Origin: Candidatus Methanophagaceae archaeon
Lineage (GTDB): Archaea; Halobacteriota; Syntropharchaeia; Alkanophagales; Methanospirareceae
Reading direction: 5' to 3'
DNA: 32,000 nt
Assembly: GCA_003194425.1 (NCBI GenBank)
Contig: PQXB01000001.1
Location: 100,444-132,443 of the forward strand
Both the position numbers and the translations under genes were made by a program. Positions within the stretch are counted from its first letter, which is position 1, and the number at the start of each line of letters is the position of its first letter. Under the pieces are notes generated by a model. That model was not told where the DNA came from, searched no databases, and worked only from the letters and a program-made list of their open reading frames with translations. This document shows positions 1 to 29,739 of the stretch, piece by piece.

Positions 1-578
1 CCTGCCAGACTGACGCCACCGTTCGTGCCAACAGGAACTTTTTTTAGCGTTGTGATTAGCCTCGGCTCTCCGCCGTCCGCCTGCCCGATTTCTGTTGAAA
101 ATGTGTCTGCACAGGCGGTAGCGACCGCACCTGAGAAGCCGAGCAGGAAGACGGTCTTTTGAGAGAAGCCGTAAAAAACCGCGAAGACCAGCGGCGACAA
201 GCCGTTGCCAAGCACATTATTTATGTCTCGCATTCCCTTGCTCCCTCCTCCCTTTCCTCCTCCTCCTCCTCCCTTTCCTCCTCCGCTTTCACCGCCTCCT
301 CCTCCGCTTTCACCCCCTCCTCCGCCTTCTGCAACGCCGAGCAGTTCTTTCTTCTCGTACTTGTATTTCGTGACCAAGTTCCCAAAGACGAAGAACGCGA
401 GTAGCAGAAGCAGACCCGCGTAGCCAAACTCGAGCCCCAACGCCAACAAAATCACCACGCCAAGCCCGAGCGTGCCGAGAAACGCGGAGGTGTTTATTTT
501 GCGTTTTAGGTAAGCGTAAAGCACGAGCGAGAACGCTACCAAGACGGTAAGCCCGGTTAGAGTCGCAGTTTCAAACAT
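1..578 (-). CDS. DUF92/TMEM19 (COG1836) family integral membrane protein; C-terminal end lies beyond the window edge
   Basis: Own minus-strand translation from the ATG at 578..576: MFETATLTGLTVLVAFSLVLYAYLKRK...GNLVTKYKYEKK...CADTFSTEIGQADGGEPRLITTLKKVPVGTNGGVSLAG. It stays open to position 1, so it is absent from the ORF track (no stop in window). The start overlaps the upstream gene's stop (ATGTTTGA). It carries a Gly-rich repeat insert, GGGGGESGGGGGESGGGKGGGGGGKGGGSKG. Confidence 0.7.
   Translation of the reverse strand, partial: MFETATLTGLTVLVAFSLVLYAYLKRKINTSAFLGTLGLGVVILLALGLEFGYAGLLLLLAFFVFGNLVTKYKYEKKELLGVAEGGGGGESGGGGGESGGGKGGGGGGKGGGSKGMRDINNVLGNGLSPLVFAVFYGFSQKTVFLLGFSGAVATACADTFSTEIGQADGGEPRLITTLKKVPVGTNGGVSLA
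240..336. repeat. GGN-rich tandem repeats (about 21-bp units) inside the DUF92 gene
   Basis: cctcctccgctttcacc recurs. Encodes GGGGGES x2 and KGGGGGG x2. Confidence 0.8.
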
Positions 579-2115
579 TTTTACACCCCCTCGCAAAAAT
601 CCTGTCAAAAGTCTCTCTCTCAATTTCTTCGAAAAATATCGCCCGTCCGACCTCGCCACGCAGCCGCCTGACCTCGCGTAGTCCCATCGCGCCGAGAACC
701 TCAAGCAGCTGGTTCCGCCACGCACCGACGAGATTTATTATCCGCTGCGCCGCCCACTCGGCGTCCACTTCTTCCAACCCCACCGGACACTTCAGTCCCC
801 GCCCCTTAGCGTTCAGTCCCCCCCCCTTAGCGTTCAGTCCCCGCCCCTTAGCGCACGCTCTGCAGTAGCGGCACTCCAGAGCCAAAAGAAGCGGCAGGTC
901 AACCGCGGTCAAATCAGCACCGCAAATTATTGATTTCGCCACGTGCTCCGCCATTGCGATTCCTCCGCTCACTACGAGCGTTACCTCGTCCCGGATTCTA
1001 CGCTTCACCAAATGTCTGTGAACCTTCAGGGTCAGGTCATTTACAAATAAACTTTTTTCAAAAGTTTGCTGCGAGGTTTGTGCAGCGTTTTTGATCAAAC
1101 TTTTTTTGAAAGTTTGTCCGTTGAGGTCCGCACAAAGGTGAACGACTTCTACGCCTGCGTAGGTCAGTTCTTCCACGATTTCCGCTACTTCCTCGGCGAC
1201 GCTGAAAGGCACTCTCACCGCGACGAGCGTTCCAGGACTTAACCTCTTCGCCTCGCTCACTTCTCTCAAAACGCTTTCTCCACCGCCGTACTCAAATTCC
1301 ACCATTTTGCACACCTTAATCAAATCTTTCAGCGCAGCGTTTTTGGTCAAACTTTTTCTAAAACTTTGCGGCACCAAAAAATCCTTGTAGCCCGCGTTAA
1401 ACCACTCTCCTGCGTCCACAATCATAAAAGTGCCAAGACGAGAGGCAGCCCTCGCCACCGCTTCGTAGACGCTCTTAAACCTACCAAAAGGGAGTGCGTT
1501 AAAATTAAAAATTATCGGAATTGGAACGGTCAGTGTTGGTGGGACAGGAGACGCGATCTTCCCGTTACCGTGGACGTTACCGTGGGTGTTAACGTGGGTG
1601 TTAACGTGGGTGTTAAACTTGAGAGCAGGTAGCTTTCGCCCGACGTCCACTGCGGTGCTGATGTATTCGCGTCCGTGAATCCCGTCCCTCGTGGGTCGCA
1701 CGATTTCTGACATGTCCGTCCACATTGAATCGAAGCCTTCGCCTGAAAACGGTCCTGGGTAGCCCGCGCCAGAGACTGGGATCTTGCCGGTCTCCGCCTG
1801 GTACCAGTTCGTGCTGATTATTTCGGGCGTCCAGTAGGAGTCGCCGAGCAGGGAATATTCTGGGTTTTCACGGATGCTCAACGCCTCTCTCGGACACTCC
1901 TGCACGCAGCGGAAGCAGCCTTTACAGCGGTGTCCTTCGGGTTCTGCCATTTTTCTCGCGTCTTCTTCCCCCCGTTTGTGTACCTCGTAGACGCAAACGC
2001 TGGCACACTTTCCGCAATTTATGCAGCCACTCTCGTCCCGTCTTATCTCAAACTTCCCGATTGGTTTGTAGCGCGGCGGTCTCGGCACGACCGCAACGCT
2101 GTATTTTTTAGGCAT
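571..2115 (-). CDS. Glutamate-synthase-like FMN-domain oxidoreductase with N-terminal 2x[4Fe-4S] ferredoxin domain
   Basis: ORF 571..2154. N-terminal CINCGKCASVC...CKGCFRCVQECP. TDMSEIVRPTRDGIHGRE and VVSGGIAMAEHVAKSIICGADL...ALECRYCRAC...KCPVGL resemble the Glu_synthase FMN domain. The likely true start is the ATG at 2115 (MPKKYSVAV), because the 13 codons upstream are just a palindromic element. Confidence 0.7.
   Translation of the reverse strand: MPKKYSVAVVPRPPRYKPIGKFEIRRDESGCINCGKCASVCVYEVHKRGEEDARKMAEPEGHRCKGCFRCVQECPREALSIRENPEYSLLGDSYWTPEIISTNWYQAETGKIPVSGAGYPGPFSGEGFDSMWTDMSEIVRPTRDGIHGREYISTAVDVGRKLPALKFNTHVNTHVNTHGNVHGNGKIASPVPPTLTVPIPIIFNFNALPFGRFKSVYEAVARAASRLGTFMIVDAGEWFNAGYKDFLVPQSFRKSLTKNAALKDLIKVCKMVEFEYGGGESVLREVSEAKRLSPGTLVAVRVPFSVAEEVAEIVEELTYAGVEVVHLCADLNGQTFKKSLIKNAAQTSQQTFEKSLFVNDLTLKVHRHLVKRRIRDEVTLVVSGGIAMAEHVAKSIICGADLTAVDLPLLLALECRYCRACAKGRGLNAKGGGLNAKGRGLKCPVGLEEVDAEWAAQRIINLVGAWRNQLLEVLGAMGLREVRRLRGEVGRAIFFEEIERETFDRIFARGCKNV
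791..853. repeat. 21 bp x3 tandem repeat inside the GltS-like gene
   Basis: ttcagtccccgccccttagcg x3 (middle unit has 1-2 changes). Encodes GRGLNAK GGGLNAK GRGLK. Confidence 0.95.
1049..1068. repeat. Family-A palindromic element, in-frame in CDS
   Basis: AAACTTTT-TTC-AAAAGTTTG. Translated (minus strand) as QQTFEKSLF. Confidence 0.85.
1082..1116. repeat. Family-A palindromic element (35-bp long form), in-frame in CDS
   Basis: gcagcgtttttgatCAAACTTTttttgAAAGTTTG. Translated as QTFKKSLIKNAA. Confidence 0.9.
1334..1368. repeat. Family-A palindromic element (35-bp long form), in-frame in CDS
   Basis: gcagcgtttttggtCAAACTTTttctaAAACTTTG. Translated as QSFRKSLTKNAA. Confidence 0.9.
1564..1618. 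repeat. 12 bp x4.6 tandem repeat inside the GltS-like gene
   Basis: gttaccgtggac gttaccgtgggt gttaacgtgggt gttaacgtgggt gttaaac. Encodes NTHVNTHVNTHGNVHGN. Confidence 0.95.
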
Positions 2116-2116
2116 T

Positions 2117-2136
2117 AAACTTTTTCTAAAAGTTTG
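2117..2136. repeat. Family-A palindromic element, intercistronic
   Basis: AAACTTTT-TCT-AAAAGTTTG between the stop at 2144 and the ATG at 2115. Confidence 0.85.
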
Positions 2137-2143
2137 ACTAAAA

Positions 2144-4195
2144 CTAATTTTCATAAACGAGCCTCCAGTAGTCTTCGCTCGATTCCAACGCCGCGACGAA
2201 CTCCTTTACCTTCTCCTCCGCCGGCTTGCCAAACCTGTCTTCAAGCAGCTTTTCCAGCTCCGTCCACGCCGCGACGAGGTCAAGGTCGTTCTGACAGACC
2301 TCCCGGCACATCTCACAGTGCGTGCACAAAAAAACCTTGTCCGAGTCGCTTTTCGTTACTTCGCTGCCTGCACCCTTCCCTCTCTCTCTTCTCGTGCCTT
2401 CAAGAAGTTTCTTGGCGAGAAGAAGCTTGTTCTTTGGAATTACTCTCTCCTCGCAGGTAACAAGGTACGCGGGGCAGTTGGCAGCGCAACTCCCACACTT
2501 GACGCAGGAGTAAACCGCTCTTTCAAGCACCGACTCCTCTCTCTGCTCTTTCTTTTTATCTTTCTTTTTAACCTCCTCTTTGGCGGGTAAAAGCAGCGGG
2601 GCAAAGAGCGGCGTAGCCAAAGCCGCAGCACCGACTAACGGTTCGAAGACGAGCGGTTTGAAGACGACTCCGGGGAAGTTCCAGAATTTCGTCCGCACCG
2701 CGAAGAACTTGTTCGGGTTTAAAATCCCCCGCGGGTCGACTTTTTTCTTGTAGGCTTTGAGAGTTTTTAGCGTCGTTCTGCCAAATTTAGCCTTTACGAA
2801 CGGCGTGTTCCAAATTCCGACACCGTAAGGGACGCCGCCGAACTTTAGCCCGAGTCGCGTGAGAGCAGGGACAAGGCTCAGGTGGAGCAGGTAAGTCTTC
2901 GACTCTCGGGCGTCGCACTGGTGCGTTAAAATCAGGAGTGCCTCACCCTCGCCCGTTCCCTTCTGCCCCAAAATGTGTGACTCCGCCTGCAAATCCATTC
3001 CGCACCTCTCTGCCGCCCGCTTCGCTGCTTTAAGAAACGGAACCGCGTTCTCAAGCGGGAGGACGAGTTCACACGCCAGCGGAGTGGGCTTGCTGCCGCT
3101 ACTTCTCTTCATCGGAAAAAGCCGCTCGTGCCAGAGGTAGTTCGCAAGGTGTTCTTCTGCAAGCCTGCCCCGCCGCTGCGTCGCAAACTCGACAAATTTC
3201 GTCGCCTCTTCCTCCTCCTTCTCCTCTTCCTTCCCCTCTTCCTTCCCCTCTTCCTCCTCCCTCTCCTCCTCCCTCTCCTCCTCTCTCTCCTCCTCTCTCT
3301 CCTCCTCCCTCTCTTCCTCCTCCTCAAACTCCACCAACACTGCCTCCTTCACCGCGAACAAATCCTCGCCCAGCACCGCGTTCGCCTCTTCAAGATGCCC
3401 GGCGTCCAAATATTTTATGTGGTAAGGTTTGGGCTTGAAATCCGATTTTACCAAGTCCCGCACAAAATCAAACGCCGCTTCGCAACTCTCAAAATACGCC
3501 AAACGCGGCAGCGACCTTTTCGGCTTCTTTCGCAGTTTCAGGGTCGCAGTCAGAACCAAGCCGAACTGTCCCTCTGTCCCGAAGAACCGCTCAAACTCTG
3601 CTTCGTTTGACTGAAAGGTCTTCACCTCGCCCGACGGGAACAGAACCTCAAGCGACTCCACCTGCTCCTTGAGGTGTCCGAACCTGAAACTTCCTACTCC
3701 GTACCCCCCAGTAGCGACCCAACCGCCGACAGTCGAGAAGAAGCTCGAGGGGTAGGCTCGGAGTGAAAAATCTTCAGACTTCAAAAAGTTCTCGATTTCT
3801 GACCACCTCACGCCTGCTTGGACTTTTAGCGCCCTCCAATTTCCCTCTCTTTCAGATTTCTTTGGTAAAGGTTTCTTTTCTAAAGAAAGGTTTTTCAGGA
3901 GAGAGAAGTCAAGAATGACGCCTTTTACCGTAGGAAGAACGCCGCCGAGCCCGGAAGAAGCCGAGCCTCGTGGGAAGAGTGCCACCCTCTCGGCGTTTGC
4001 GAACCCAACGATTTTTTTTAGTGCGTCAACGCTTTTCGGCTGGACTACGAGTTCCGGAGTAGTCTCAAAGAGCCTGCTTGCGAACGGAACTTCGCCGATG
4101 TCCGTGCTGAAGAGTTCACGCTCGAAGTCGCCCTCCAAAATCCGCCCCTCGTCTCCGACGAGTTCTTTTAGCCTCTCTTTTAACTTCTCCACCAT
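2144..4195 (-). CDS. FAD-linked oxidase (GlcD / D-lactate dehydrogenase-like) fused to a C-terminal 2x[4Fe-4S] (GlpC/HdrD N-terminal-like) domain
   Basis: PCMH-type FAD-binding N-terminus (VVQPKSVDALKKIVGFANAERVALFPRGSASSGLGG). C-terminal CVKCGSCAANCP and CTHCEMCREVC. A long Glu-rich tandem-repeat insert sits mid-protein. Confidence 0.75.
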   Translation of the reverse strand: MVEKLKERLKELVGDEGRILEGDFERELFSTDIGEVPFASRLFETTPELVVQPKSVDALKKIVGFANAERVALFPRGSASSGLGGVLPTVKGVILDFSLLKNLSLEKKPLPKKSEREGNWRALKVQAGVRWSEIENFLKSEDFSLRAYPSSFFSTVGGWVATGGYGVGSFRFGHLKEQVESLEVLFPSGEVKTFQSNEAEFERFFGTEGQFGLVLTATLKLRKKPKRSLPRLAYFESCEAAFDFVRDLVKSDFKPKPYHIKYLDAGHLEEANAVLGEDLFAVKEAVLVEFEEEEEREEEREEEREEEREEEREEEEGKEEGKEEEKEEEEATKFVEFATQRRGRLAEEHLANYLWHERLFPMKRSSGSKPTPLACELVLPLENAVPFLKAAKRAAERCGMDLQAESHILGQKGTGEGEALLILTHQCDARESKTYLLHLSLVPALTRLGLKFGGVPYGVGIWNTPFVKAKFGRTTLKTLKAYKKKVDPRGILNPNKFFAVRTKFWNFPGVVFKPLVFEPLVGAAALATPLFAPLLLPAKEEVKKKDKKKEQREESVLERAVYSCVKCGSCAANCPAYLVTCEERVIPKNKLLLAKKLLEGTRRERGKGAGSEVTKSDSDKVFLCTHCEMCREVCQNDLDLVAAWTELEKLLEDRFGKPAEEKVKEFVAALESSEDYWRLVYEN
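3205..3325. repeat. 12-bp-period GAR-rich repeat tract inside the GlcD-like gene
   Basis: Encodes EEEEEREEEREEEREEEREEEREEEEGKEEGKEEEKEEEE. Confidence 0.9.
3866..3894. repeat. Family-B palindromic element, in-frame in CDS
   Basis: aaaGGTTTCTTTtctAAAGAAAGGttttt. Translated (minus strand) as KNLSLEKKPLP. Confidence 0.8.
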
Positions 4196-5042: not shown

Positions 5043-6698
5043 ATGAAAATTTTGTTGGCAACAGGGAGGAGAGCGGAGGGGGTGGTAAAGAATGCAGTGA
5101 GATCTTTAGACTGCTGCGAGGTTCTTACGCAGGACTTGGGAATTGCCGCCTTCTCGACGCCCAAATCTCTGCGAAACGCACTTGAAAAAAATTTTATTTC
5201 CCCAAAAAATTACGACCTCGTTCTTGTCTCGGGGCTCTGTAAGTCTGATTTTAGCGGTTTAGAGAAAGAGCTCGCCACACCAGTCAGGCTGGGTCCCAGG
5301 CACGCCTACGACCTCGGAGAGGCGTTGCAACTCGCAGGAGCAGGAAAGGGTGTGGAAGCAGGAGAGGGAGAGAGAGAGGGAGTGGGAAAGGGTGAGGGAA
5401 AGGGAGTGGGAGAGGGAGTGGGAGAGGGAGAGAGAGAGGGAGTGGGAAAGGGAGTGAGAGTGGCGTCGTATTTCTCGCCGCTTACGCCTGCGGATTTATT
5501 TTTGGCGGAGAAGAGGCGAGAGAGCGCGAAGAAGCAGTTGGCGGAGTTAGAAAGGAGTGCAAGAGCAGAGTTCAGCGTAAAAGGAGTGAAAATCGGCGGA
5601 GGTGCAAGAATGAAAGTCTGCGCGGAGATTGTGGACGCGACGCTCTTGAGCGAGGAAAAAGTGCAGCGGAGAGCGAGATATTTCGTGGAGTGCGGTGCTG
5701 ACATTCTGGATGTTGGCGTTCATTTGGGTGCGAAGCCGGGCGCGGTGAGGCGGGCGGTAAGAGCGGCTCTTGGCGCCGCCCCCGAAGTCCCTCTCTCGGT
5801 TGACAGTTTAGACGCTGACCTAATTCTCGCAGGCGTCGAAGCCGGCGCCGAGATTGTGCTCAGCCTGAACCGCGAAAACATCGCGAGAGTGGGCAACGAA
5901 GTAGCAGCGAGAGGCGTAGCAGCGGTTGTAGTTCCCGATTTTGACGCACCTCCGAAGAAGAGTAACGAGAGCCTCTTTGAGAACTTAAGGCTGGCGGAGG
6001 AGCACGGCATAAAACGCGTAATCGCCGACCCTGTCTTGAACGCGGTCGGCTACGGAATTGCAGAGTCCCTGCACAACTATTTTCTCTTCAGAGAGCGGGA
6101 CAAAACCACGCCGCTCTTCTTTGGCGTCGGAAATGTCACGGAGTTGTTGGACGCAGACTCGGTGGGCGTGAACGCGGTCTTGGCGGGCGTGGCGTCCGAG
6201 TTGAACGCGGACATTCTTTTTACGCCCGAACACAGCGACAAGGCAAGAGGGAGCGTTAGAGAGTTGCGAGTGGCGTCAGAAATGATGACGCTCTCGAAAG
6301 CACGCTGTGTGGGAGGGGGCGGGAGCGCCCCAAAAGATGTTGGACTCGACCTCTTGGTCTTGAAAGAGAAGCGAAGCCACCCACCAAAGCAACTTCAGGA
6401 CAAAGACGAGCGGGGGGTTGTTCTCGCGAGCGGGGACGAGCAGTGGCGGCTTGACCCCAAGGGGTGCTTTAGAATCGGCGTCTGTGAAGTGGAGGGTAAG
6501 CGGAAAATTTATGCAAAACACACGCCAAGCGGGAGGAAAGTAGTAGGCGGAACTGCGAAGGAGGTTGCAGAAACAATCTTGCGGTTGGGTCTGGTCTCCC
6601 TGCTCGAGCACGCCGCTTACTTGAGTGCTGAGTTGACGAAGGCTGAACTCGCACTGCGGTTGGACAGGAGTTACGAGCAGGACGAGGTGCTATTTTAA
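5043..6698 (+). CDS. Dihydropteroate-synthase-like pterin-binding protein (archaeal MJ0107-type, with extra N- and C-terminal domains)
   Basis: DHPS-like motifs: YFVECGADILDVGV, PLSVDSLDADLILAGVEAGAEIVLSLN, VIADPVLNAVGYG. The C-terminal ~100 aa resemble DUF4346. A Gly/Glu-rich repeat insert lies near aa 100-140. Confidence 0.65.
   Translation: MKILLATGRRAEGVVKNAVRSLDCCEVLTQDLGIAAFSTPKSLRNALEKNFISPKNYDLVLVSGLCKSDFSGLEKELATPVRLGPRHAYDLGEALQLAGAGKGVEAGEGEREGVGKGEGKGVGEGVGEGEREGVGKGVRVASYFSPLTPADLFLAEKRRESAKKQLAELERSARAEFSVKGVKIGGGARMKVCAEIVDATLLSEEKVQRRARYFVECGADILDVGVHLGAKPGAVRRAVRAALGAAPEVPLSVDSLDADLILAGVEAGAEIVLSLNRENIARVGNEVAARGVAAVVVPDFDAPPKKSNESLFENLRLAEEHGIKRVIADPVLNAVGYGIAESLHNYFLFRERDKTTPLFFGVGNVTELLDADSVGVNAVLAGVASELNADILFTPEHSDKARGSVRELRVASEMMTLSKARCVGGGGSAPKDVGLDLLVLKEKRSHPPKQLQDKDERGVVLASGDEQWRLDPKGCFRIGVCEVEGKRKIYAKHTPSGRKVVGGTAKEVAETILRLGLVSLLEHAAYLSAELTKAELALRLDRSYEQDEVLF
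5361..5452. repeat. 60-bp-period repeat with 12-bp subrepeats inside the DHPS-like gene
   Basis: ggagagggagagagagagggagtgggaaaggg occurs at 5361 and 5421. Encodes GEGEREGVGKG..GEGEREGVGKG. Confidence 0.9.
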
Positions 6699-7147
6699 AA
6701 TCTGCCTCTACCTCCACCTCTTCTACCTCCACCTCTGCCACCGCCTCGTCCGCTTCCGACACCTCCAACGCCACTGCCGAGAGCCTGTCCTGAATGAGCC
6801 GGGACAGTCGGAGCCTCTGCTGCTTTATTTAGACCGCCGCTTTTGTACTTCTCGACTACTTCTTTCACCGTGCCGAACGCCCCAGTCGCGATTTTAACGC
6901 CTGCTGCGGAGAGCACTTGAAAAGCGTTAGGACCAACATTCCCTGTAACAAGCACCTCTGCATTTTTATTCACGACTGTCTCCGCTGCCTGTATTCCTGC
7001 TCCTCCGGGTGCGTTAAAGGCTTCGTTTGGCATCGCCTCGAAATCCGTCGTCTCCGAGTCAACGAAGACGAAATATTTGCACCTTCCAAACCTCGGGTCT
7101 ACCTCTGCACTCAAATCCCCCGCTACTGCAGTTACGCATATTTTCAT
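6695..7147 (-). CDS. NifX/NifB-C-terminal-like (dinitrogenase FeMo-cofactor-binding fold, MTH1175-type) protein with an Arg/Gly-rich tail
   Basis: MKICVTA...VDPRFGRCKYFVFVDSET...GGAGIQAAETVVNKNAEVLVTGNVGPNAFQVLSAAGVKI is typical of PF02579-type proteins. The C-terminus is GSGVGGVGSGRGGGRGGGRRGGGRGRF. Confidence 0.75.
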   Translation of the reverse strand: MKICVTAVAGDLSAEVDPRFGRCKYFVFVDSETTDFEAMPNEAFNAPGGAGIQAAETVVNKNAEVLVTGNVGPNAFQVLSAAGVKIATGAFGTVKEVVEKYKSGGLNKAAEAPTVPAHSGQALGSGVGGVGSGRGGGRGGGRRGGGRGRF

Positions 7148-7238
7148 TTTTTCTTTCTCCTTTCCTTTCTCTTCTCCTTTTTCCTCTTTTTCCTGATTTT
7201 TATTTTACCGTGCGTATTTATTTCTTACTACCTCGCTC

Positions 7239-7286
7239 TATAAAATGGTTTATAAAATGGTTTATAAAATGGTTTATAAAATGGTT
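7239..7286. repeat. 12 bp x4 perfect intergenic tandem repeat
   Basis: tataaaatggtt x4. The minus-strand reading is aaccattttata. Confidence 0.95.
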
Positions 7287-7287
7287 T

Positions 7288-7329
7288 AATTTTTAATTTT
7301 TCATTTTTAATTTTTAATTTTTAATTTTT
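7288..7329. repeat. 7 bp x6 tandem repeat spanning the purA stop codon
   Basis: aattttt x6 (one unit is cattttt). Encodes the purA C-terminal EKLKIKN*. Confidence 0.95.
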
Positions 7330-13779: not shown

Positions 13780-13805
13780 TTTACTTCTCTCTCTCCCTCC
13801 CCTCT

Positions 13806-13880
13806 TGCCTTCATTCCTCCTGCCTTCATTTCTCCTGCCTTCATTTCTCCTGCCTTCATTTCTCCTGCCTTCATTCCTCC
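13806..13880. repeat. 15 bp x5 tandem repeat filling the hdrC-hdrB spacer
   Basis: tgccttcatt(c/t)ctcc x5. Confidence 0.95.
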
Positions 13881-13895
13881 TTCTTCCCTTCTCCT

Positions 13896-14498: not shown

Positions 14499-14503
14499 TT
14501 TTT

Positions 14504-14584
14504 CTCCTCGCTCTCCTCTCCTTTCTTCTCCTCGCTCTCCTCTCCTTTCTTCTCCTCGCTCTCCTCTCCTTTCTTCTCCTCGCA
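14504..14584. repeat. 24 bp x3.4 tandem repeat filling the spacer upstream of hdrC
   Basis: ctcctcgctctcctctcctttctt x3 plus a partial unit. Confidence 0.95.
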
Positions 14585-14595
14585 CCTCACACCTC

Positions 14596-15732: not shown

Positions 15733-16166
15733 AAAATCTCACCTCGCAACGGGTTCGGTCCCAACTTCTTTATCTCCTCCGACAGCTCCTTCATCGTCTT
15801 CGCAAACTTCTCGCCCTCGGACGCACTGATCCAGTACGACTTGAAACGGTTGTCCAGCCCGAACTGCTTCAAAATCGTCCGCAGCGCTGCAATTCGCCGC
15901 CGAGCGTAGAAGTTCCCTTTTATGTAGTGGCACTCGCCCGGGTGACACCCGCTAAAGAACGCTCCGTCCGCTCCGTTCAGCAACACCTTGAGCACAAACA
16001 TCGGGTCCAACCTGCCCGAGCACATCAGCCGAATTATCCGTGAGTTTGGTGGGTATTTCTTCCTCGAAGTCCCTGCAAGGTCTGCTGCCGCGTAAGTGCA
16101 CCAATTACAAGTAAACCCGACGATCTTTGGCTCGAATTCCTCTTTCTCTCGCACTTCTTCTCCCAT
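15729..16166 (-). CDS. mvhD: MvhD-type (methyl-viologen-reducing hydrogenase delta subunit) [2Fe-2S] protein
   Basis: KIVGFTCNWCTYAAADLAGTSRKKYPPNSRIIRLMCSGRLDP...FFSGCHPGECHY is the MvhD/FlpD signature. Confidence 0.9.
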   Translation of the reverse strand: MGEEVREKEEFEPKIVGFTCNWCTYAAADLAGTSRKKYPPNSRIIRLMCSGRLDPMFVLKVLLNGADGAFFSGCHPGECHYIKGNFYARRRIAALRTILKQFGLDNRFKSYWISASEGEKFAKTMKELSEEIKKLGPNPLRGEIL

Positions 16167-16274
16167 TTCTCTTTCTCTCCTCTATTTTCCTTCTCCTCTT
16201 CTTCTGCCTTTCCTCTACTTCTCCTTTACTCCTACTTCTCCTCTACTCTTAAAATCTGTCTGCTCTTTTAATCT

Positions 16275-22990: not shown

Positions 22991-24040
22991 ATGAGCCAAA
23001 ACCACGACCTCGGCGACTTCGGCGTCGAGACCTACACGAGCCTCTTCGAAGACGCCTACAAGAAGAACCTGGCGGGCAGGAAGCCGGACACGCTCTACGA
23101 GCCGATTCTTGACCTGCTGGGCAGAGGCGGGAAGAGGTTGCGACCTGCTTTGTGCCTGCTGGCGTGCGAGTTGGTGGGGGGCGAGACCGAGAGGGGGTTG
23201 CCGACTGCGATTTGCATCGAGTTCTTCCACAACTTCTCGCTCGTTCACGACGACATCGAGGACGGCAGCGAGTTGCGGCGCGGCGAGCCGGCACTGCACC
23301 TTAAGTACGGGCTTCCTGTCGCGTTGAACGCAGGCGACGGGCTTTACGCGTTGTGCTACGAGGCGTTGAAGCCGAACAAGGAGTTGCTGGGCGTGGAGCG
23401 TGCGTGGCGGATTTTTGAGGCGGTTGCAGGGCTTTGCGTTGTGCTTGCTGAGGGGCAGGCTGCGGACCTCGAGTTCAAGCAGAAAATGGAAAAGGGCGAG
23501 GTAGAGGTGAGCGAGGCGGAGGTGTTGGAGGTCTTGAGGAAGAAGACTGCGAGGTTGTTTGCGGTCTCGGCAGAGTGCGGTGCTGTTGCTGGCGGAGCGT
23601 CCTACGCGACTGCAGCGGAGTTGGGCAGTGCCTGGGACGACATCGGAATCGCATTCCAAATTAGAGACGACATCCTCAATCTCGTCGGTGAAGAGGCGAA
23701 ATACGGGAAACGGATCGCAGAGGACATTTCCGAAGGAAAGCCCTCCCTACTCCTCGTTAACTGCCTAAAGCAGTGCGAGGCTCGCGAAAGGGCGAAGATT
23801 TACGCCTGCTTTCAGAATTACGACAAAACCAAAATAAAGGAGGTCGTTGCTCTGTTTAGGAAGTACGGGTCAATCGACTACTCAGAGGCGGTGGCGGGGC
23901 GGTACTTGCAGAGTGGAATAAATAAGATAAGAAAAATGAATATAAAAATAAAAAATAAAGACAAAAAAGGAGTAAAGGAAAAAGGAGTAAAGGAGAAAAT
24001 GGTAGCGTTGGCAGAATATTTCGTGAGGAGAGAGAAGTGA
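22991..24040 (+). CDS. idsA: Polyprenyl (geranylgeranyl) diphosphate synthase
   Basis: First Asp-rich motif FHNFSLVHDDIEDGSELRRG and second FQIRDDILN. An AT-rich Lys-rich repeat insert (KGVKEKGVKEK) lies near the C-terminus. Confidence 0.9.
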   Translation: MSQNHDLGDFGVETYTSLFEDAYKKNLAGRKPDTLYEPILDLLGRGGKRLRPALCLLACELVGGETERGLPTAICIEFFHNFSLVHDDIEDGSELRRGEPALHLKYGLPVALNAGDGLYALCYEALKPNKELLGVERAWRIFEAVAGLCVVLAEGQAADLEFKQKMEKGEVEVSEAEVLEVLRKKTARLFAVSAECGAVAGGASYATAAELGSAWDDIGIAFQIRDDILNLVGEEAKYGKRIAEDISEGKPSLLLVNCLKQCEARERAKIYACFQNYDKTKIKEVVALFRKYGSIDYSEAVAGRYLQSGINKIRKMNIKIKNKDKKGVKEKGVKEKMVALAEYFVRREK

Positions 24041-24726: not shown

Positions 24727-24766
24727 TTGAGTTTTGGTCAGGAGAGTTGAGTTTGGGTCAGGAGAG
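24727..24766. repeat. 20-bp direct tandem repeat x2 immediately 3' of tRNA-Thr
   Basis: ttgagttttggtcaggagag / ttgagtttgggtcaggagag (1 mismatch). Confidence 0.9.
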
Positions 24767-25627: not shown

Positions 25628-26689
25628 TTACCTGACCTCCTGACCTCCTGACCTCCTGACTTCCTGACCTCCTGTCCTCCTGACCTTTGCACCACTCTCT
25701 GCGATTCTGCTCGTTCTCACTTCTCCGAACTCCTTCAGTGCCTCACTCTCGCCGACGAGAAAGACCGCGTCCCCGAGCATTGCGGCACTGGCGACTTTTC
25801 CCTCCGCAGCGACCGCCTCGATCGCGTCACTGCACCGCTCGCTTACCACGCCGCAACGCAACGAGAACCTTCTTGAGACGAGCATAAAATTCTCTAAACT
25901 CGGCTGCCTTACCCGAGCCAGCTCTTTCATCGCTGCCCTGCCCGCCTCGTTTATTCTCCGCCTCAGATTCGCAGAACCGTCCTCCAACTCCTCCAACAAG
26001 ACAGACCTCGTGGATTTCCTTCCGAAGATGACGTAGCTCACTTTCTCCCGGCTGTGTGGTATTTTTTCAATTCTTCCTCCTCCTACAACGCCAGGCTCCT
26101 TTCTCAGCACCACTCCCCCGCCGCCGTACGCCTCTGCAACCACATCGCCCAAGCCTGTGCTGTTCTCTACTTCCGCGAGGTGAGCGACAAAAACCAGCTC
26201 GTTCAGCGTCCTGCCGAGCGAGAAAAGGTCGTTCAACGCCAGAGCAGTGCTGAGCGCACCCGCGCCGCTCGCACCGAACCCGCAGCCGACCGGCACTTCA
26301 AAATCCGTCGCCACGCTAACGGGCTTGTCTCCTACTAAACGCTCGACTACGGATTTGGTGGTCTCTGCCTCCGCCACCGCAACGCCGTTTATTCTTATTT
26401 CTCTTATTTTTCTTCCCGCTCGATTTTTAGTGGAAGAGCTGAGAGCAGCTTCGGTCAGGGTCGCACTGCTCAGGGTCGCACTGCTCAGGGTCGCACTGCT
26501 CAGGGTCGCACTGCTCAGGGTTGCACAAGTCTCACAGCCGGCTTCTAACAGAATTCCACCACCCACCGAGCCTTTCTGGAGCGGATTTTTGTCGTCGTCC
26601 CGAATCTCGAAGAAGCCGGTTAGGTGCGACGGCGAGTAGGCTCTGGCACTTGCACTTGCACTTGCTCTTCTCCTTCTCGGGTTCTGCAT
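25628..26689 (-). CDS. GHMP-family kinase, probably pantoate kinase (archaeal CoA pathway, COG1829)
   Basis: YSPSHLTGFFEI near the N-terminus and the GHMP motif VPVGCGFGASGAGALSTALA. It carries three repeat tracts: ASASAS, ATLSS x5 and a C-terminal tail from an 8-bp repeat. Confidence 0.6.
   Translation of the reverse strand: MQNPRRRRASASASARAYSPSHLTGFFEIRDDDKNPLQKGSVGGGILLEAGCETCATLSSATLSSATLSSATLSSATLTEAALSSSTKNRAGRKIREIRINGVAVAEAETTKSVVERLVGDKPVSVATDFEVPVGCGFGASGAGALSTALALNDLFSLGRTLNELVFVAHLAEVENSTGLGDVVAEAYGGGGVVLRKEPGVVGGGRIEKIPHSREKVSYVIFGRKSTRSVLLEELEDGSANLRRRINEAGRAAMKELARVRQPSLENFMLVSRRFSLRCGVVSERCSDAIEAVAAEGKVASAAMLGDAVFLVGESEALKEFGEVRTSRIAESGAKVRRTGGQEVRRSGGQEVR
25631..25686. repeat. 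8 bp x7 tandem repeat between convergent genes
   Basis: cctgacct x7 (two variant units). Read as the kinase C-terminal tail RRTGGQEVRRSGGQEVRRSGGQEVR*. Confidence 0.95.
26455..26526. repeat. 15 bp x4.8 tandem repeat inside the kinase gene
   Basis: tcagggtcgcactgc x4 plus a partial unit. Encodes ATLSS x5. Confidence 0.95.
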
Positions 26690-26742: not shown

Positions 26743-27384
26743 ATGGCGGAACGAACTTGTAGGTGCGGGTTGGAGGGGTTAGAAGGGTTAGAGGGGTTAG
26801 AAAGGTTGGAGACGAGGAAATGCGAGCCAGAGGTGCTGGAGACGGTGGTTGAGATTGCGGTGGGAATTGCGAAGCAGAGTGCAAGCAGCAGGACGAGCAG
26901 GGGCACGCTCTTCGTGATCGGCGACGAAGAAGAGGTCTTGAGGAGGTCAAAGCCCCTGATTTTAGACCCGCTCGCAGAACACTCGAGGGAGGTGAAAAAC
27001 ATAAGAGACGCGGATGTGCAGGGAACGATAAAAGAGCTTGCGAAGTTGGACGGTGCTTTTGTCATCAGCGGCGACGGCTACGTCCTTTCGGCGGCGAGGC
27101 ACATTGAAGCGAGTTCAGAGAATATTGACCTTCCGATGGGTTTTGGCAGCAGGCATATGGCTGCCGCCTCGATTTCCAAAGAGACAGACGCCGTCGCGGT
27201 GGTGGTCTCGGAGAACGACGAGGTGGTGCGAATATTTGACGACGGCGAGCTGGTAGCCGAGATAATTTCGGGAGCGCGGGAGGGTGCGTGGGATTTGGAG
27301 AAAATCAAGCCGCACATAAAGGGAAAATACGAGAAGGTGGTAGAGAAGGACTTGAACTTGACGATGATTTTGAAGCAGAGTTAG
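26743..27384 (+). CDS. Diadenylate cyclase (DAC/DisA_N) domain protein
   Basis: GTLFVIGDEEE, LAKLDGAFVISGDGYVLSAARHI, GFGSRHMAAASISKETDAVAVVVSENDEVVRIF. The ATG at 26743 is preferred, because the longer track ORF overlaps the divergent kinase gene. Confidence 0.75.
   Translation: MAERTCRCGLEGLEGLEGLERLETRKCEPEVLETVVEIAVGIAKQSASSRTSRGTLFVIGDEEEVLRRSKPLILDPLAEHSREVKNIRDADVQGTIKELAKLDGAFVISGDGYVLSAARHIEASSENIDLPMGFGSRHMAAASISKETDAVAVVVSENDEVVRIFDDGELVAEIISGAREGAWDLEKIKPHIKGKYEKVVEKDLNLTMILKQS
26767..26811. repeat. 9 bp x5 tandem repeat inside the DAC gene
   Basis: gggttggag gggttagaa gggttagag gggttagaa aggttggag. Encodes GLEGLEGLEGLERLE. Confidence 0.9.
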
Positions 27385-27757: not shown

Positions 27758-27780
27758 TCTTCTTACCTCAATTTTTTCTC

Positions 27781-27810
27781 TCCTTCTTCTCTCCTTCTTC
27801 TCTCCTTCTA
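27781..27810. repeat. 11 bp x2.7 intergenic tandem repeat
   Basis: tccttcttctc x2 plus a partial unit, between the hsp20 start and the PAC2 gene end. Confidence 0.85.
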
Positions 27811-27817: not shown

Positions 27818-28612
27818 CTAACGATACATTATCGGAATGTCCTGCTCCACGCCTTTCTGCATCTCTGGAGCCGAAAGAGCGGTCTGCCGCATTAGGTCCC
27901 GAGCTTTCAGTTTTATCTCCTCCCCCTTCTCCAACAACTCTCCCACATCAATGCCCAAATTTAAAAACTGCTCGAGTGACTCAATCGCCGACGCTGCAGC
28001 ACCTGGGTCAGGATAAACCGGGAAACACTGGGCGAGCAGGGAAATTGCATTCGTTCTTCTCTTGCCGCATTCTCGCAGCATTAACGCGTAAGAACCCGCG
28101 ATAAATCCCTCCTCCAGCACTTCCACCTGCTTCTCCTTCAGCCACCGCACCGCCTCTTCACTGTTCCCCACCGCAAAGACCTCGGGCTTGCTTATTTCAA
28201 TCCTCTTCGCCACCGGCAGCCCTGTTATCGGAATAACAAGCCTTGCACCGATTCTCTTGAACCAATCCGCCAAAGCCCTGGTCAGCGGATAAACAGCGTT
28301 TGGCGGCACTGCAGCCTCTGACAGCACCACTACTACGCTCTCGTTACCGTAAATCCTGAACGGGCTCTTTAGCCTGCCTTCGTGAATTACCATAACCGGC
28401 GGAAACAGGTCAGATTCGATGTAGCCAATTTCTCTGCACTTTTCCTTCTCCGTTCTCATCTCAAGCTTCTCCACGATGTAAGACACTGCAATCGTCCCCA
28501 CTAAACCCACATCCGGCAAGCCCGCCACCACAATCGGATTTTTATACCCCTCGCCCTTATTCCCCTCACCCTCTTCTTCCACTACTCTCACGAGTTCTTC
28601 CATTTTTTTCAT
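27818..28612 (-). CDS. PAC2-family proteasome assembly chaperone
   Basis: NPIVVAGLPDVGLVGTIAVSYIVEKL. The ATG at 28612 (MKKMEEL) avoids the 109-nt overlap with the RFC gene that the longer track ORF implies. Confidence 0.75.
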   Translation of the reverse strand: MKKMEELVRVVEEEGEGNKGEGYKNPIVVAGLPDVGLVGTIAVSYIVEKLEMRTEKEKCREIGYIESDLFPPVMVIHEGRLKSPFRIYGNESVVVVLSEAAVPPNAVYPLTRALADWFKRIGARLVIPITGLPVAKRIEISKPEVFAVGNSEEAVRWLKEKQVEVLEEGFIAGSYALMLRECGKRRTNAISLLAQCFPVYPDPGAAASAIESLEQFLNLGIDVGELLEKGEEIKLKARDLMRQTALSAPEMQKGVEQDIPIMYR

Positions 28613-28629
28613 CGCGATTAAAAAGAAAC

Positions 28630-29739
28630 TCAAAAGAGAAAGTGTGCCAGCAACTCTTCCAAGTGAATGATTGGATTCAAGGAATTGCAGAGTTTGAAAT
28701 CCGCTTCGGCTTCGTGCAGCACGAGTTTGGCGAACCACCGTGCCTCTTCTTCTCCTCGCTCTTCTTCTCCTCGCTCTTCTTCCCCTCGCTCTTCTTCCCC
28801 TCGCTCTTCTTCTCCTTGCCCTTCCCTCGCCAACCGCCTTCGCAACGCCTCGTGCACCTCTGCCAGCACCTCTTTCGCCCCGACCCGCTCGTCTTTTATC
28901 AGAGCCTCCAAGCCCTCCCGCACTTTTTTACGCCTCCCCCTAAACGCCGAATCTAACAACTCCTCTGCCTCCTTTCTCTGAAGAAACGCATTCTGCACCA
29001 CTTCTTTTATTCTGCCCTCGCCGATCGTTTTTGCCTCCGCTGCTGCTGCAGCGGCTGCAGCCGCTTCCAGAATATTTATGCCCGCACCTGCGTCGCCTCT
29101 CGCGAACTGCTTCAGCGTCTTTAAAGCCCCTACTGTAAGTTTTAGCCCCTCTGCTTCGGCGATTTCCGCGAGCAGTGCGTCCAACGCACCGGTCTTGTCC
29201 AAAGCCGTAAAGTGAAGGTTCAAGCACCGCGACCTCACTGCTGGTACGACGCTAGCAGGTTTGGAGGTGGCGAAAATGAACCTGCAGGTTTTGTTGCTCC
29301 GTTCCATCACCCGCCGCAGAGCCTGCTGCAGATTTAGAGGCAGAAGGTCGGCGCTGCTGAAGAAGAGCAATTTGAAACTCGCATTTGCACTTACAGGCGA
29401 CAGCACGGCGTACTCCCGCACCACCGCCTTAAAAATGTCAATCGCAGATTTCTGCTCGTCGTAAAAGAACCTGAACCTCTTCTCCTCTTTCAGCCATTTC
29501 TTCCGCTGCTCAACGAAGTCCGAGCATTCAATGTGTAGCAGGTTTAGGAGGCTCGCGTCGTCGCCGTAAAGCCCCCTCGCCACTGCGTAAACCAGCGAAG
29601 TCTTACCGCTCCCTTTTGGACCCCAAAGCAAGAGGTTCGGGAGGGTCTTTTCCTTGACAAACCCTTTTAACTGCTTCACTACCTCTGCCTGCCCCGCTAT
29701 CTCGTCCAACTGTCTCGGTCGGTATTTTTCAACCCACAT
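28630..29739 (-). CDS. rfcS: Replication factor C small-subunit-like AAA+ clamp-loader protein (divergent)
   Basis: WVEKYRPRQLDEIAGQ, Walker A GPKGSGKT, and the SRC motif VRSRCLNLHF. The Walker B position reads FFSSAD instead of DEAD. An EERGE x4-5 repeat is inserted near the C-terminus. Confidence 0.8.
   Translation of the reverse strand: MWVEKYRPRQLDEIAGQAEVVKQLKGFVKEKTLPNLLLWGPKGSGKTSLVYAVARGLYGDDASLLNLLHIECSDFVEQRKKWLKEEKRFRFFYDEQKSAIDIFKAVVREYAVLSPVSANASFKLLFFSSADLLPLNLQQALRRVMERSNKTCRFIFATSKPASVVPAVRSRCLNLHFTALDKTGALDALLAEIAEAEGLKLTVGALKTLKQFARGDAGAGINILEAAAAAAAAAEAKTIGEGRIKEVVQNAFLQRKEAEELLDSAFRGRRKKVREGLEALIKDERVGAKEVLAEVHEALRRRLAREGQGEEERGEEERGEEERGEEERGEEEARWFAKLVLHEAEADFKLCNSLNPIIHLEELLAHFLF
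28745..28815. repeat. 15 bp x4.7 tandem repeat inside the RFC gene
   Basis: tcgctcttcttc(t/c)cc units. Encodes EERGE repeats. Confidence 0.95.

Follow-up and report, generated by a model that had tools for sequence, protein, structure and literature searches.

Borgs carry near-perfect tandem repeats both in genes and in the spacers between them, and only units divisible by three (3n) occur within their open reading frames (ORFs) (PMC9879509). Their coding strand shows a base bias, the copy number of the repeats changes fast, and the encoded amino-acid repeats are rich in disorder-promoting residues and missing from homologues; a function for the repeats was argued for by the authors who described them (PMC9879509). 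This pattern has so far been described mainly for giant Borg elements. Here it was found in an ANME-1 chromosome, in a 32-kb stretch of DNA (the window), and the combination of features that an earlier note had likened to that of Borgs held up against the published description (PMC9879509). Under the strict Borg rule, perfect repeats occupy 0.81% of window bases (none in the archaeal background or in shuffled sequences), compared with 0.62% in Borgs and at most 0.01% in Methanoperedens. The two systems differ in that the base bias of the window tracts is toward G+A rather than A, that 67% of intergenic units in the window are 3n compared with 14-38% in Borgs, and that window genes lie on both strands whereas Borg replichores are one-stranded.

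Proteins encoded in the window are identical to NCBI entries PXF50949..PXF50974, which lie on a 1,187,124-bp contig and are labelled 'MAG: Candidatus Methanophagaceae / Methanophagales archaeon'. The genes include purA, hdrABC-mvhD, the RFC small subunit, pantoate kinase, ribosomal proteins S14 and S8 and tRNA-Thr, with nadC and cdhD to the right of these, and Pfam, NCBIfam and PDB searches confirmed the housekeeping identities first read from the sequence. About 22 genes are on the minus strand and 11 on the plus strand, the GC content is 53%, and the pairing of the GlcD-like and GltS-like genes shows synteny with other contigs of ANME-1. The NCBI records, core gene content, genes on both strands and ANME-1 synteny thus agree with the earlier description of an ordinary chromosome, and we assign the window to the main chromosome of an ANME-1 (Methanophagales) archaeon, uncultured and probably thermophilic, from Guaymas/Pescadero hydrothermal sediments. 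Because this organism is ANME-1 and not Methanoperedens, 'host' here refers to the cell itself, as opposed to an element outside the chromosome. In favour of a giant Borg-like extrachromosomal element, with housekeeping genes captured from its ANME-1 host, the repeat pattern matches that of Borgs, the 1.19-Mb source contig falls in the Borg size range, the surroundings of purA are not syntenic with other ANME-1 genomes and, among the matches listed, there was no species-level match in GTDB representatives. We nevertheless consider such an element very improbable, given the two-stranded gene arrangement, the absence of a low-GC signature, the synteny of the GlcD-like/GltS-like pair, a content drawn nearly entirely from core metabolism, replication and translation plus a tRNA, the assignment of the sequence to ANME-1 genomes by NCBI and other binners in several studies, and the failure of protein searches to find a second 'host' copy of the window genes.

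Tandem Repeats Finder (TRF) returned 24 merged tracts in the window (score of at least 50, period of at least 4), a density of 7.5 per 10 kb, covering 4.6% of bases. About 20 had been counted previously, and every tract listed then was recovered with its period, exactly or within a few bases, by TRF and a re-run with default parameters. The comparison with related and other archaea that had been named as a check gave a far lower background: 80 purA loci from other archaeal species contained 56 tracts in 1.24 Mb (0.45 per 10 kb, median 0), and 20 ANME-1-type loci had 0.47 tracts per 10 kb. Perfect tracts (at least 30 nt and at least 2.5 units) numbered 13 in the window and 4 in the 1.24 Mb of archaeal purA loci; none of 20 dinucleotide shuffles contained any. 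Density was still 8-10.6 per 10 kb in the 12 kb past the window; judging from the ~46 kb sampled in one genomic region, the repeats presumably extend genome-wide.

Tracts inside genes or at gene ends are given below, with strain differences in brackets (all from TRF unless stated; for tracts longer than ~100 bp, copy numbers in short-read assemblies may be imprecise).

244..329, minus: 21-bp-unit repeat, GGGGGES GGGGGES, GGGKGGGGGGKGG, in a DUF92 membrane protein; TRF and translation (9 bp shorter in L001, 24 bp shorter in L002)
791..853, minus: 21-bp x3, GRGLNAK GGGLNAK GRGLK, GltS-like protein
1563..1616, minus: 12-bp x4.5, NTHV NTHV NTHG NVHG, GltS-like protein (12 bp shorter in L001 and L002; one unit fewer in strain cluster P0121)
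2547..2570, minus: 12-bp x2, KKKDKKK, inside a 10-residue lineage-specific insertion of the GlcD-like protein
3205..3325, minus: 12-bp-unit (also 24, 36) tract of 40 E/R/G/K residues, 100% purine on the sense strand, GlcD-like FAD oxidase (peptide 11 residues shorter in P0001)
5361..5460, plus: 12-bp (also 6, 24), GEGEREGVGKGEGKGVGEGVGEGEREGVGKGV, dihydropteroate-synthase-like protein TIGR00284, with a 60-bp super-period discernible in the peptide (12 bp shorter in L001)
6707..6736, minus: 15-bp x2 perfect, RGGGR RGGGR, C-terminal tail of the NifX-like protein
7285..7329, minus: 7-bp x6.4, spanning the purA stop codon and encoding the last residues KLKIKN*
9228..9271, plus: 15-bp x2.5, GGKAGGGEAGGGGG, inside PfkB (single copy in L004)
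15150..15175, minus: 6-bp micro-repeat, NGGDGDGG, inside the FrhB-like protein; from translation (12 bp shorter in L001 and L003)
16416..16467, minus: 15-bp x3.5, GSEGSRSEGSRSEGS, pilin-like surface protein (30 bp shorter in L003)
17600..17642, minus: 21-bp x2 duplication, ACEVGGE ACEVEGE, pilin-like protein (single copy in L004)
23964..23999, plus: 15-bp x2.3, KGVKE KGVKE K, C-terminal tail of polyprenyl synthetase
25631..25686, minus: 8-bp x7, tail RRTGGQEV RRSGGQEV R, making the 3′ end of the pantoate kinase ORF (24 bp, or three units, shorter in five strain contigs)
26455..26526, minus: 15-bp x4.8, (ATLSS)5, pantoate kinase (5, 3 or 2 copies among strains)
26646..26669, minus: 6-bp x4, ASASASA, N-terminus of pantoate kinase
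26767..26811, plus: 9- and 18-bp, GLE GLE GLE GLE RLE, near the N-terminus of a DacZ-like diadenylate cyclase
28542..28572, minus: 15-bp x2.1, GEGNK GEGY, near the PAC2 N-terminus
28744..28824, minus: 15-bp x5.4, (RGEEE)5, C-terminal domain of the RFC small subunit (5, 4 or 3 copies among strains)

Alignment to orthologues bore out the proposal that the tracts are lineage-specific insertions in all four protein families tested (GlcD-like protein, GltS-like protein, pantoate kinase and RFC small subunit). The tract at 1563..1616 is missing from 18 GltS-like orthologues, and that at 791..853 falls in a loop; at this position other ANME-1 orthologues show either nothing or a palindromic-element peptide. 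The 3205..3325 tract was inserted at an ancestral acidic seed, 'EFEEDDEE', carried there by the orthologues, and 19 orthologues lack the tract itself. Both the 25-residue (ATLSS)5 insertion and the 25631..25686 tail are missing from 13 pantoate kinase orthologues of ANME-1, the former also from PDB 6jbc, and (RGEEE)5 corresponds to a 21-residue gap in the L025 RFC orthologue, lying between residues 269 and 288 of A. fulgidus RFCS (PDB 2chq). The tracts thereby appear to add glycine- and glutamate-rich loops to core enzymes, which are predicted to be floppy, and the G/E/K/R-rich peptides are probably disordered; for the 3205..3325 peptide, AF2 pLDDT was 45-57, compared with 87 and 76 in the flanking blocks of a model that is weak overall. 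One TRF match (2639-2667, VFKPLVFEP) was rejected as an inserted repeat because the segment is conserved.

The following tracts lie in leaders and spacers (all from TRF).

7149..7201, minus: 12-bp polypurine repeat, 5′ leader of the NifX-like gene
7239..7288, minus: 12-bp x4.2 perfect, AACCATTTTATA (sense strand), ~90-140 nt upstream of the NifX-like start, with a TATA-box-like TTTTATA in every unit that may have a promoter role (24 or 31 bp shorter in L001, L002, L003 and L005)
8498..8603, plus: compound 27-, 12-, 11- and 8-bp polypurine, leader or optional N-terminal extension of the PfkB-family kinase
13801..13903, minus: 15-bp x5.4, between hdrC and hdrB, each unit having GGAGG/GGAGA then ATG (44 bp shorter in L002 and L003)
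14498..14600, minus: 24-bp x3.4 perfect, between the frhB-like gene and hdrC (hdrC leader) (24 or 48 bp shorter in L001-L004)
16143..16249, minus: 17-bp (also 12, 28) polypurine repeats, mvhD leader
24727..24766, plus: 20-bp x2 duplication, lying 10 nt 3′ of tRNA-Thr and preceding a DNA methyltransferase gene (other strains have a single copy or, at the same site, a different 15-bp duplication)
27776..27809, minus: 11-bp x3.1 perfect polypurine, GAAGGAGAGAA, hsp20 leader with GGAG in each unit (one additional unit in L089, L093 and L095)
30720..30749, no strand assigned: 15-bp x2 perfect, between the convergent 3′ ends of the CbiA-Fer4 and adenosine-kinase-like genes (3 copies in L094, compound expansion in L092)
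31230..31266, minus: 15-bp x2.5, leader of the adenosine-kinase-like gene

In the long ORF of the PfkB-family kinase the Pfam domain begins at residue 46, and strain differences of -5 and -38 bp at 8498..8603 break the frame, so this region was treated as non-coding. Across every genic tract the ORF stays open. All 19 genic units are divisible by three, compared with 10 of the 15 non-genic units (Fisher p=0.011), and units that are not 3n (7, 8, 11, 17 and 20 bp) were confined to leaders or gene ends. The rule that periods are multiples of three in ORF interiors therefore stood, but its other half, that they are not so at gene ends or between genes, was right only in part, because most non-genic units are 3n too. 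This share is also higher than the third that chance would give (p=0.0085), an excess that is not predicted by a pure model of random generation followed by an ORF filter.

Between the window and contigs 97-99.6% identical to it, 28 of 32 indels fell in tracts, as whole-unit changes spanning 1 to 5 copies, although tracts make up 8% of the sequence compared (binomial p about 7e-27). Alleles of 1, 2, 3, 4 and 5 copies were found among strain contigs. The unit-number polymorphism anticipated by the earlier note was thus observed, and the changes from single copy to five support its suggestion of an active, selection-filtered repeat process. The notion that short-read metagenome assembly falsely produced the tracts, or their differences in copy number, deserves almost no credence, even though runs of N in L001 and L004 coincide exactly with tracts and Borg repeats often end or corrupt contigs according to the Borg authors (PMC9879509): the tracts recur in over 25 contigs, which come from assemblies of different samples in ENA, JGI, NCBI and Logan, identical alternative alleles reappear across pipelines and samples, run SRR6664617 as assembled independently in Logan matches the window copy numbers exactly, most tracts are shorter than a read, and the ORFs are intact.

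We consider it likely that the repeats originate at polypurine seeds in an ANME-1 chromosome, through frequent duplication at microhomologies and slippage during replication, with selection acting as a filter. The lineage would duplicate short segments of 6-30 bp in tandem unusually often, most likely through microhomology-mediated duplication, and slipped-strand mispairing during replication or repair would then add or remove whole units. Within the window, no enzyme or repair defect was identified to account for a raised slippage rate. Within ORFs, selection would let only 3n units survive, in loops and tails tolerant of G/E/K/R-rich peptides, while other units would persist only in leaders, spacers and the extreme 3′ ends of genes.

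Nine or ten tracts lie immediately before start codons, and GGAG is present in 6 of 8 leader units; the hdrB leader combines a Shine-Dalgarno-like motif and ATG in its units with nested upstream ORFs, (MKAGE)n, whose terminal TGA overlaps the hdrB ATG. Together with the TATA-like motif, the 3n enrichment of non-genic units and the Borg authors' preference for function (PMC9879509), these features favour a reading in which the repeats are kept as useful. Leader, TATA-like and mvhD-frhB-hdrCBA intercistronic arrays would then be tunable knobs of transcription or translation, charged glycine-rich loops would be beneficial (e.g. for solubility or interactions at high temperature), and the high density would be due to positive selection acting on mutations that arise at a normal rate, not to an unusual mutation process. 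We regard this as unlikely, as copy numbers vary freely in near-identical strains, down to a single copy and in core enzymes, which fits near-neutral turnover better than tuned optima; moreover, unit sequences differ between all tracts, and the nearest other ANME-1 share the genes and purine-rich leaders without the arrays.

For duplication and slippage, the preferred start sites would be stretches of low complexity with a purine-rich sense strand, seeded by GGAG-rich 5′ leaders and by runs of GAR, AAR, AGR and GGR codons. The sense-strand purine fraction was 0.79-0.83 in tracts compared with 0.576 in the remaining coding sequence, for genes on either strand, in line with what had been noted for most units. 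Other ANME-1 loci are equally purine-skewed without having repeats (Spearman 0.15, p=0.2), indicating that purine loading alone is an insufficient explanation. Roughly one tract in four is not rich in purines, among them (ATLSS)n, NTHV and the TATA-like unit.

Tandem Repeats Finder (TRF), run at default stringency (score ≥50, period ≥4), returned 93 rows for the 32-kb window, which resolved into 24 non-overlapping tracts covering 4.6% of bases; every tract listed in an earlier note made from the sequence alone was found, with the period named there. For a baseline, the region around purA was taken from 80 further species of archaea (ANME-1, Methanomicrobiales, Methanocellales, Archaeoglobi and others; 1.24 Mb); it yielded 56 TRF tracts, with a median of 0 per locus. 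The 20 ANME-1-type loci of this set had 0.47 tracts per 10 kb; values for the closest other ANME-1 found (70-74% protein identity) were 0.5 and 2.3. The earlier note had named a genome-wide density no higher than in typical archaea as grounds for refutation; over the ~46 kb of one genomic region sampled, the window carried 7.5 tracts per 10 kb against 0.45 in the baseline, and density stayed high to the right of the window (8-10.6 per 10 kb). Under the strict rule applied to Borgs, the giant extrachromosomal elements of Methanoperedens (no mismatch, ≥50 nt, ≥3 units), four perfect tracts were detected in the window and none in the 1.24-Mb baseline. When the rule was relaxed to ≥30 nt and ≥2.5 units the counts were 13 and 4, respectively, and each of 20 dinucleotide-preserving shuffles of the window contained 0.

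Three other loci, from Candidatus Methanoxibalbensis ujae (L027, ANME-1c; 320-10756) and Methanomicrobium sp. (L083 and L085), had 3.6-6.1 TRF tracts per 10 kb. They were rejected as instances of the same phenomenon, as their tracts are degenerate, mostly intergenic and of unit length not divisible by 3, with zero perfect tracts; those of L027 are pyrimidine- or purine-rich. Such tracts may represent a milder or older form of the same tendency, for L027 in another thermophilic ANME-1 family.

The repeats are embedded in ordinary cellular gene content, as follows.

Gene content of the window, by region (Pfam, NCBIfam and PDB comparisons)
Left part: DUF92 protein; GltS-like Fe-S protein; GlcD-like FAD oxidase; ArsR regulator; PGF-CTERM protein; dihydropteroate-synthase-like (DHPS-like) protein (TIGR00284); NifX-like protein
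Middle: purA; PfkB-family kinase; pyruvoyl arginine decarboxylase; operon mvhD / frhB-like / hdrC / hdrB / hdrA; pilin-like protein; epimerase
Low-GC stretch: two DNA methyltransferases; MazE/PIN pair
Right part: polyprenyl synthetase; ribosomal proteins S14 and S8; tRNA-Thr; pantoate kinase (PDB 6jbc, E=6e-26); DacZ-like diadenylate cyclase; Hsp20; PAC2; RFC small subunit (PDB 2chq, E=3e-44); MinD-type Fe-S ATPase

Exact-sequence look-up matched the window proteins to NCBI records PXF50949 to PXF50974, which lie on a 1,187,124-bp contig and are labelled 'MAG: Candidatus Methanophagaceae / Methanophagales archaeon'. Near-identical proteins were present in ANME-1 ex4572_4 and in GCA_026133975.1 (363-kb contig), sample names point to Guaymas and Pescadero hydrothermal sediments, and the window PurA is 83-84% identical to that of many ANME-1 genomes. 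Because NCBI labels differ among near-identical records, placement at family level within ANME-1 is uncertain. Rfam and tRNA scans revealed no RNA family or CRISPR array that accounts for any tract.

Borgs are linear elements associated with Methanoperedens; their ends are long terminal inverted repeats, each replichore has virtually all of its genes on a single strand, and their GC content is ~10% below that of the host (Al-Shayeb et al. 2022). In the 32-kb window both strands carry genes, the GC content is 53% and the proteins are of ANME-1 type. Strain contigs reaching 12 kb further right continue with ordinary genes (adenosine-kinase-like gene, ferredoxin, ELP3, nadC, cdhD, methionine aminopeptidase), and the GlcD-like/GltS-like gene pair is syntenic with other ANME-1. 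Gene orientation, GC content, the genes to the right and this synteny together argue that the window is part of a cellular chromosome; it is clearly not on a Borg.

One stretch at ~19300-22650 has a lower GC content (43-47% versus 53%) and contains an N6/N4 DNA methyltransferase, a 277-residue protein for which no family match was found, the MazE/PIN pair and small unknown ORFs. Just to the right of PIN the strains differ, with one 352-residue gene in strain contig L089 and two ~105-residue genes in L090; the stretch is probably a variable restriction-modification and toxin-antitoxin islet. The S14 and S8 genes (24047-24716) stand alone between the polyprenyl synthetase gene and tRNA-Thr(TGT), outside any long spc-type operon, and a second DNA methyltransferase gene follows tRNA-Thr(TGT).

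The repeat units respect reading frames. All 19 genic tracts (those inside ORFs) had unit lengths divisible by 3 (3n; 6, 9, 12, 15 or 21 bp), whereas five of the 15 non-genic tracts, located in leaders, spacers or the last codons of genes, had units of 7, 8, 11, 17 or 20 bp (Fisher p=0.011). This bears out the mod-3 enrichment in ORFs that the earlier note had proposed to check. The other half of its rule, that periods between genes and at gene ends escape the multiple of 3, was only partly right: non-3n units were confined to non-genic positions, but 10 of the 15 non-genic units (67%) were also 3n, above the one third expected by chance (p=0.0085, in a small sample).

Base composition follows the genes. 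On the sense strand, purines made up a fraction of 0.79 of genic tracts, 0.83 of leader tracts and 0.576 of the remaining coding sequence, and the bias was present both in plus-strand genes (DHPS-like, PfkB, polyprenyl synthetase, DacZ) and in minus-strand genes, as the earlier note had observed. Since it is seen on the sense strand of genes in both orientations, the bias tracks transcription or coding and not one DNA strand. G usually equalled or exceeded A (at 3205-3325, A 0.40 and G 0.60). Roughly one tract in four, for example (ATLSS)n, NTHV, ASAS and a TATA-like unit, lacks this richness in purines. A tract lies inside or directly upstream of 22 of the 33 genes, and no two tracts share a unit sequence. 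The encoded peptides, which are presumably translated, comprise 30% G, 24% E, 8% K, 7% R and 6% S; their composition, along with one weak AF2 model, suggests that they are disordered.

No synteny around purA was found with other ANME-1, and orthologue tests therefore drew on protein searches. The GlcD-like protein has 683 residues compared with ~610 in ANME-1 orthologues, and its 40-residue E/R/G/K tract was missing from all 19 other aligned sequences. At this site the orthologues read 'EFEEDDEE', a plausible seed for the tract judging from the alignment, and in the closest strain cluster the tract is 11 residues shorter. An AlphaFold model, poor overall (mean pLDDT 59; 21-sequence alignment), rendered the tract as a low-confidence segment flanked by confident blocks. 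Both repeats of the GltS-like protein were absent in 18 orthologues. In pantoate kinase, (ATLSS)5 forms a 25-residue insertion and a tail encoded by an 8-bp repeat forms an extension, neither being present in any of 13 ANME-1 orthologues or in the solved Thermococcus enzyme. Opposite the (RGEEE)5 tract of the RFC small subunit, the nearest available orthologue (L025) has a gap of 21 residues; in the Archaeoglobus structure the site maps between residues 269 and 288. In all four proteins the tracts are insertions or extensions relative to the orthologues compared, in keeping with the earlier note. A further TRF match, VFKPLVFEP, was discarded as a false positive, being a conserved segment.

Other insertions were noted in these families. 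The RFC small subunit (28630-29739) carries at residues ~62-97, after the Walker A region, a non-repetitive insertion of ~23 residues relative to the Archaeoglobus and Pyrococcus structures. GltS-like orthologues of other ANME-1 have their own variable R/E/G/W-rich insertions, such as EWFKREGNREWGIGNRGHTSH, in a different loop (columns ~265-300 of the GltS-like alignment), and the C-terminus of the GlcD-like protein in other ANME-1 contains a 30-bp repeat in 2-4 copies encoding FQKESFTKET (GlcD-like alignment; locus L100, 9840-9958). Loops that readily take up insertions seem to be a trait shared more widely in ANME-1.

Copy number was compared across >25 contigs with 97.4-99.6% DNA identity to the window; they represent different samples and come from assemblies by ENA, JGI, NCBI and Logan. 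Pairwise alignment over window positions 1-18,500 placed 28 of the 32 indels inside tracts, which make up 8% of the sequence (p ~7e-27), and these indels were changes of whole units. An anchor-based table of the strain contigs showed length variation at ~20 of 32 tracts, the unit-number polymorphism that the earlier note had proposed to look for. Alleles of the RFC small subunit had 5, 4 or 3 copies, those of pantoate kinase 5, 3 or 2, and single-copy alleles were present at four sites. At 24727 the window has a 20-bp duplication, two other contigs have a different 15-bp duplication and the rest are single copy. The share of mismatches within tracts was left out, being inflated by alignment inside repeats and next to N-gaps. 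An assembly artefact might produce such differences, and the scaffold gaps of two assemblies do fall on tracts; however, a separate assembly of run SRR6664617 matched the window's copy numbers at every tract covered, which argues against this explanation.

The strains also differ in the PGF-CTERM ORF (4751-5008, minus strand), where an in-frame segment of 1203 bp (401 codons) is missing from the window at 4937. Six strain contigs (L001, L002, L222-L225) retain this segment and encode a 486-residue PGF-CTERM protein with calcium-binding-like DxDxDG repeats. The deletion joins two short direct repeats coding TPTPTA / TPTATL, and all that remains in the window is the signal peptide and the PGF-CTERM anchor together with a Pro/Thr/Ser linker.

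Taken together, the window displays a Borg-type repeat pattern in a cellular chromosome, with most of the defining features present. In Borgs, perfect head-to-tail units occur in genic and intergenic DNA and are near-absent from ordinary related genomes; ORF repeats are all 3n and yield amino-acid repeats of disorder-promoting residues that homologues lack; and unit numbers evolve rapidly, within populations and between close genomes (PMC9879509). The window likewise has near-perfect repeats in genes and spacers, exclusively 3n genic units, unique unit sequences, a coding-strand base bias, probably disorder-promoting repeats absent from homologues and unit numbers that vary among close relatives. 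Under the strict rule its density is 0.81% of bases, compared with an average of 0.62% in Borgs and at most 0.01% in Methanoperedens (PMC9879509). The likeness to Borgs put forward in the earlier note was therefore upheld for density, genic 3n units, unit-number change and absence from homologues, and failed on the intergenic majority of non-3n units. The non-genic 3n share of 10/15, from a small sample, contrasts with 14-38% in Borg intergenic DNA (PMC9879509), and the bias is towards G+A in a 53% GC genome rather than towards A. Moreover, the tracts hit core enzymes, while Borg repeats are mainly in extracellular or unknown proteins, and they reside in an ANME-1 chromosome rather than a linear extrachromosomal element of Methanoperedens.

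Perfect tandem repeats had been viewed as a Borg signature, 'virtually absent' from hosts, and a Borg-specific mechanism had been suggested. An ANME-1 chromosome with the same pattern at equal or higher density, and with segregating copy-number alleles, indicates that a Borg is not required. It also provides a second, independent system for finding the cause, through comparison of replication and repair genes between repeat-rich and repeat-poor ANME-1. Because the window has genes on both strands, the base bias can be assigned to each gene's sense strand and not to a replichore, whereas in Borgs sense-strand bias is inseparable from replication direction. Prokaryotic core functions, here the clamp loader and pantoate kinase, can evidently bear polymorphic low-complexity loops, and the leaders of a heterodisulfide reductase operon are similarly affected. 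The repeats account for the short-contig assembly of this lineage, and the tracts are usable as strain markers.

Related systems share parts of this pattern. Bacterial contingency loci vary in unit number by slippage and are sited in promoters, leaders and 5' gene ends, where non-3n units switch surface or virulence genes on and off. The window has the same whole-unit variation between strains and the same positions, but its genic units are 3n, in housekeeping genes, and the ORFs are open in all alleles seen, so that the genic arrays switch nothing off. Housekeeping proteins of the eukaryote Plasmodium falciparum carry lineage-specific, compositionally biased and probably disordered loop insertions attributed to slippage in a skewed genome. 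Such insertions in conserved-enzyme loops are common to both; the Plasmodium tracts are N/K-rich, in an AT-rich genome, and mostly degenerate, whereas those of the window are near-perfect and polymorphic at strain level. Ehrlichia ruminantium has a cellular chromosome with active expansion and contraction at many tandem repeats and copy-number differences between strains, as in the window; it is an AT-rich bacterium and obligate intracellular parasite whose repeats are mainly in long non-coding regions (PMC10710844), while the window is gene-dense with half of its tracts in frame within housekeeping genes. Among archaea, satellite-rich Methanosarcina and Methanobrevibacter, of the same broad class as ANME-1, have chromosomes rich in short satellites, of which many are 3n and encode amino-acid repeats (PMC6749651). 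A survey of 142 archaeal genomes recorded at most 89 satellites per Mb (M. vacuolata), with medians of 0-3 (Subirana and Messeguer 2019, PMC6749651), compared with ~750 per Mb in the window, a ratio that is indicative only as detection criteria differ. By TRF criteria rather than the survey's tool, the window lies above the >4 satellites per Mb that define a satellite-rich prokaryotic genome (PMC6749651); polymorphism and core-enzyme insertion were not subjects of that survey. The literature searched yielded no description of tandem repeats in an ANME-1 genome.

The pattern suggests a process in three steps: tracts would arise de novo, again and again, by tandem duplication at sites whose flanks share little or no microhomology, units would be gained or lost by slipped-strand mispairing, and purifying selection would clear frame-breaking events from ORFs. 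The seeds would be mostly polypurine low-complexity DNA, supplied by leaders containing long A+G runs with GGAG motifs and by stretches in which Glu, Lys, Arg and Gly codons follow one another. Purine loading was rejected as a sufficient cause, as other ANME-1 loci are equally skewed and lack the repeats. Thermophily and high GC were likewise rejected, given 0-0.8 tracts per 10 kb in Alkanophaga (L028), ANME-1-THS (L010) and Archaeoglobi (L032, L034).

Two upstream arrays merit description.

13801-13903, minus strand: hdrC-hdrB spacer, each 15-bp unit containing GGAGG or GGAGA and then ATG
7239-7288, unit AACCATTTTATA when read in the sense of the NifX-like gene downstream: perfect 12-bp repeat, 4.2 copies

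The hdrC-hdrB units constitute upstream ORFs nested in one another (MKAGE MKAGE ...), which end at a TGA that overlaps the ATG of hdrB (ATGA), an arrangement that by its sequence might permit translational coupling and that would be altered by the 44-bp shorter spacer of some strains. The second array lines up four TATA-box-like motifs in tandem, 90-140 nt ahead of the NifX-like start codon, in strain-dependent copy number. The 3n excess outside ORFs and the GGAG/ATG arrays upstream of hdrB leave room for a functional component. A stronger version, which we regard as rather unlikely, is that this ANME-1 lineage has a specific repeat-generating activity, or has lost a repeat-suppressing one, as in Borgs; its targeting would be tied to the sense strand that is transcribed, at polypurine leaders and at runs of purine-rich codons, and the cell would have co-opted its output, as evolvable ribosome-binding or promoter arrays for operons of core energy metabolism and as disordered loops for enzymes of replication and cofactor metabolism. 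On this reading the Borg pattern would reflect a cellular process rather than a property of Borg replication machinery, and thermophilic ANME-1 enrichment cultures that already exist would allow the process to be studied.

Separately from the tandem tracts, an AT-rich palindrome, CAAACTTTT-AGA-AAAAGTTTG(ATCAAAA), occurs five times in the window.

~2117-2137, 1349-1369, 1097-1117 and 1049-1069: inside the GltS-like ORF (571-2154, minus strand)
9570-9590: intergenic

The four copies in the GltS-like ORF are in frame, each coding Q(T/S)F(R/K/E)KSL, and the peptide (QTFKKSLIKNA and variants) recurs in other ANME-1 orthologues at different positions and at protein termini (GlcD-like and GltS-like alignments). 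No literature match for the element was found, and contigs of the window's organism were absent from the JGI matches listed for the exact 21-mer. Those matches comprise at least 120 metagenome contigs of 28-48% GC with unrelated flanks, in which the 21-mer is usually followed by ATCAAAA and is mostly intergenic, sometimes within ORFs. It looks like a dispersed element, REP-like or akin to the Rickettsia palindromic element, that tolerates in-frame insertion.
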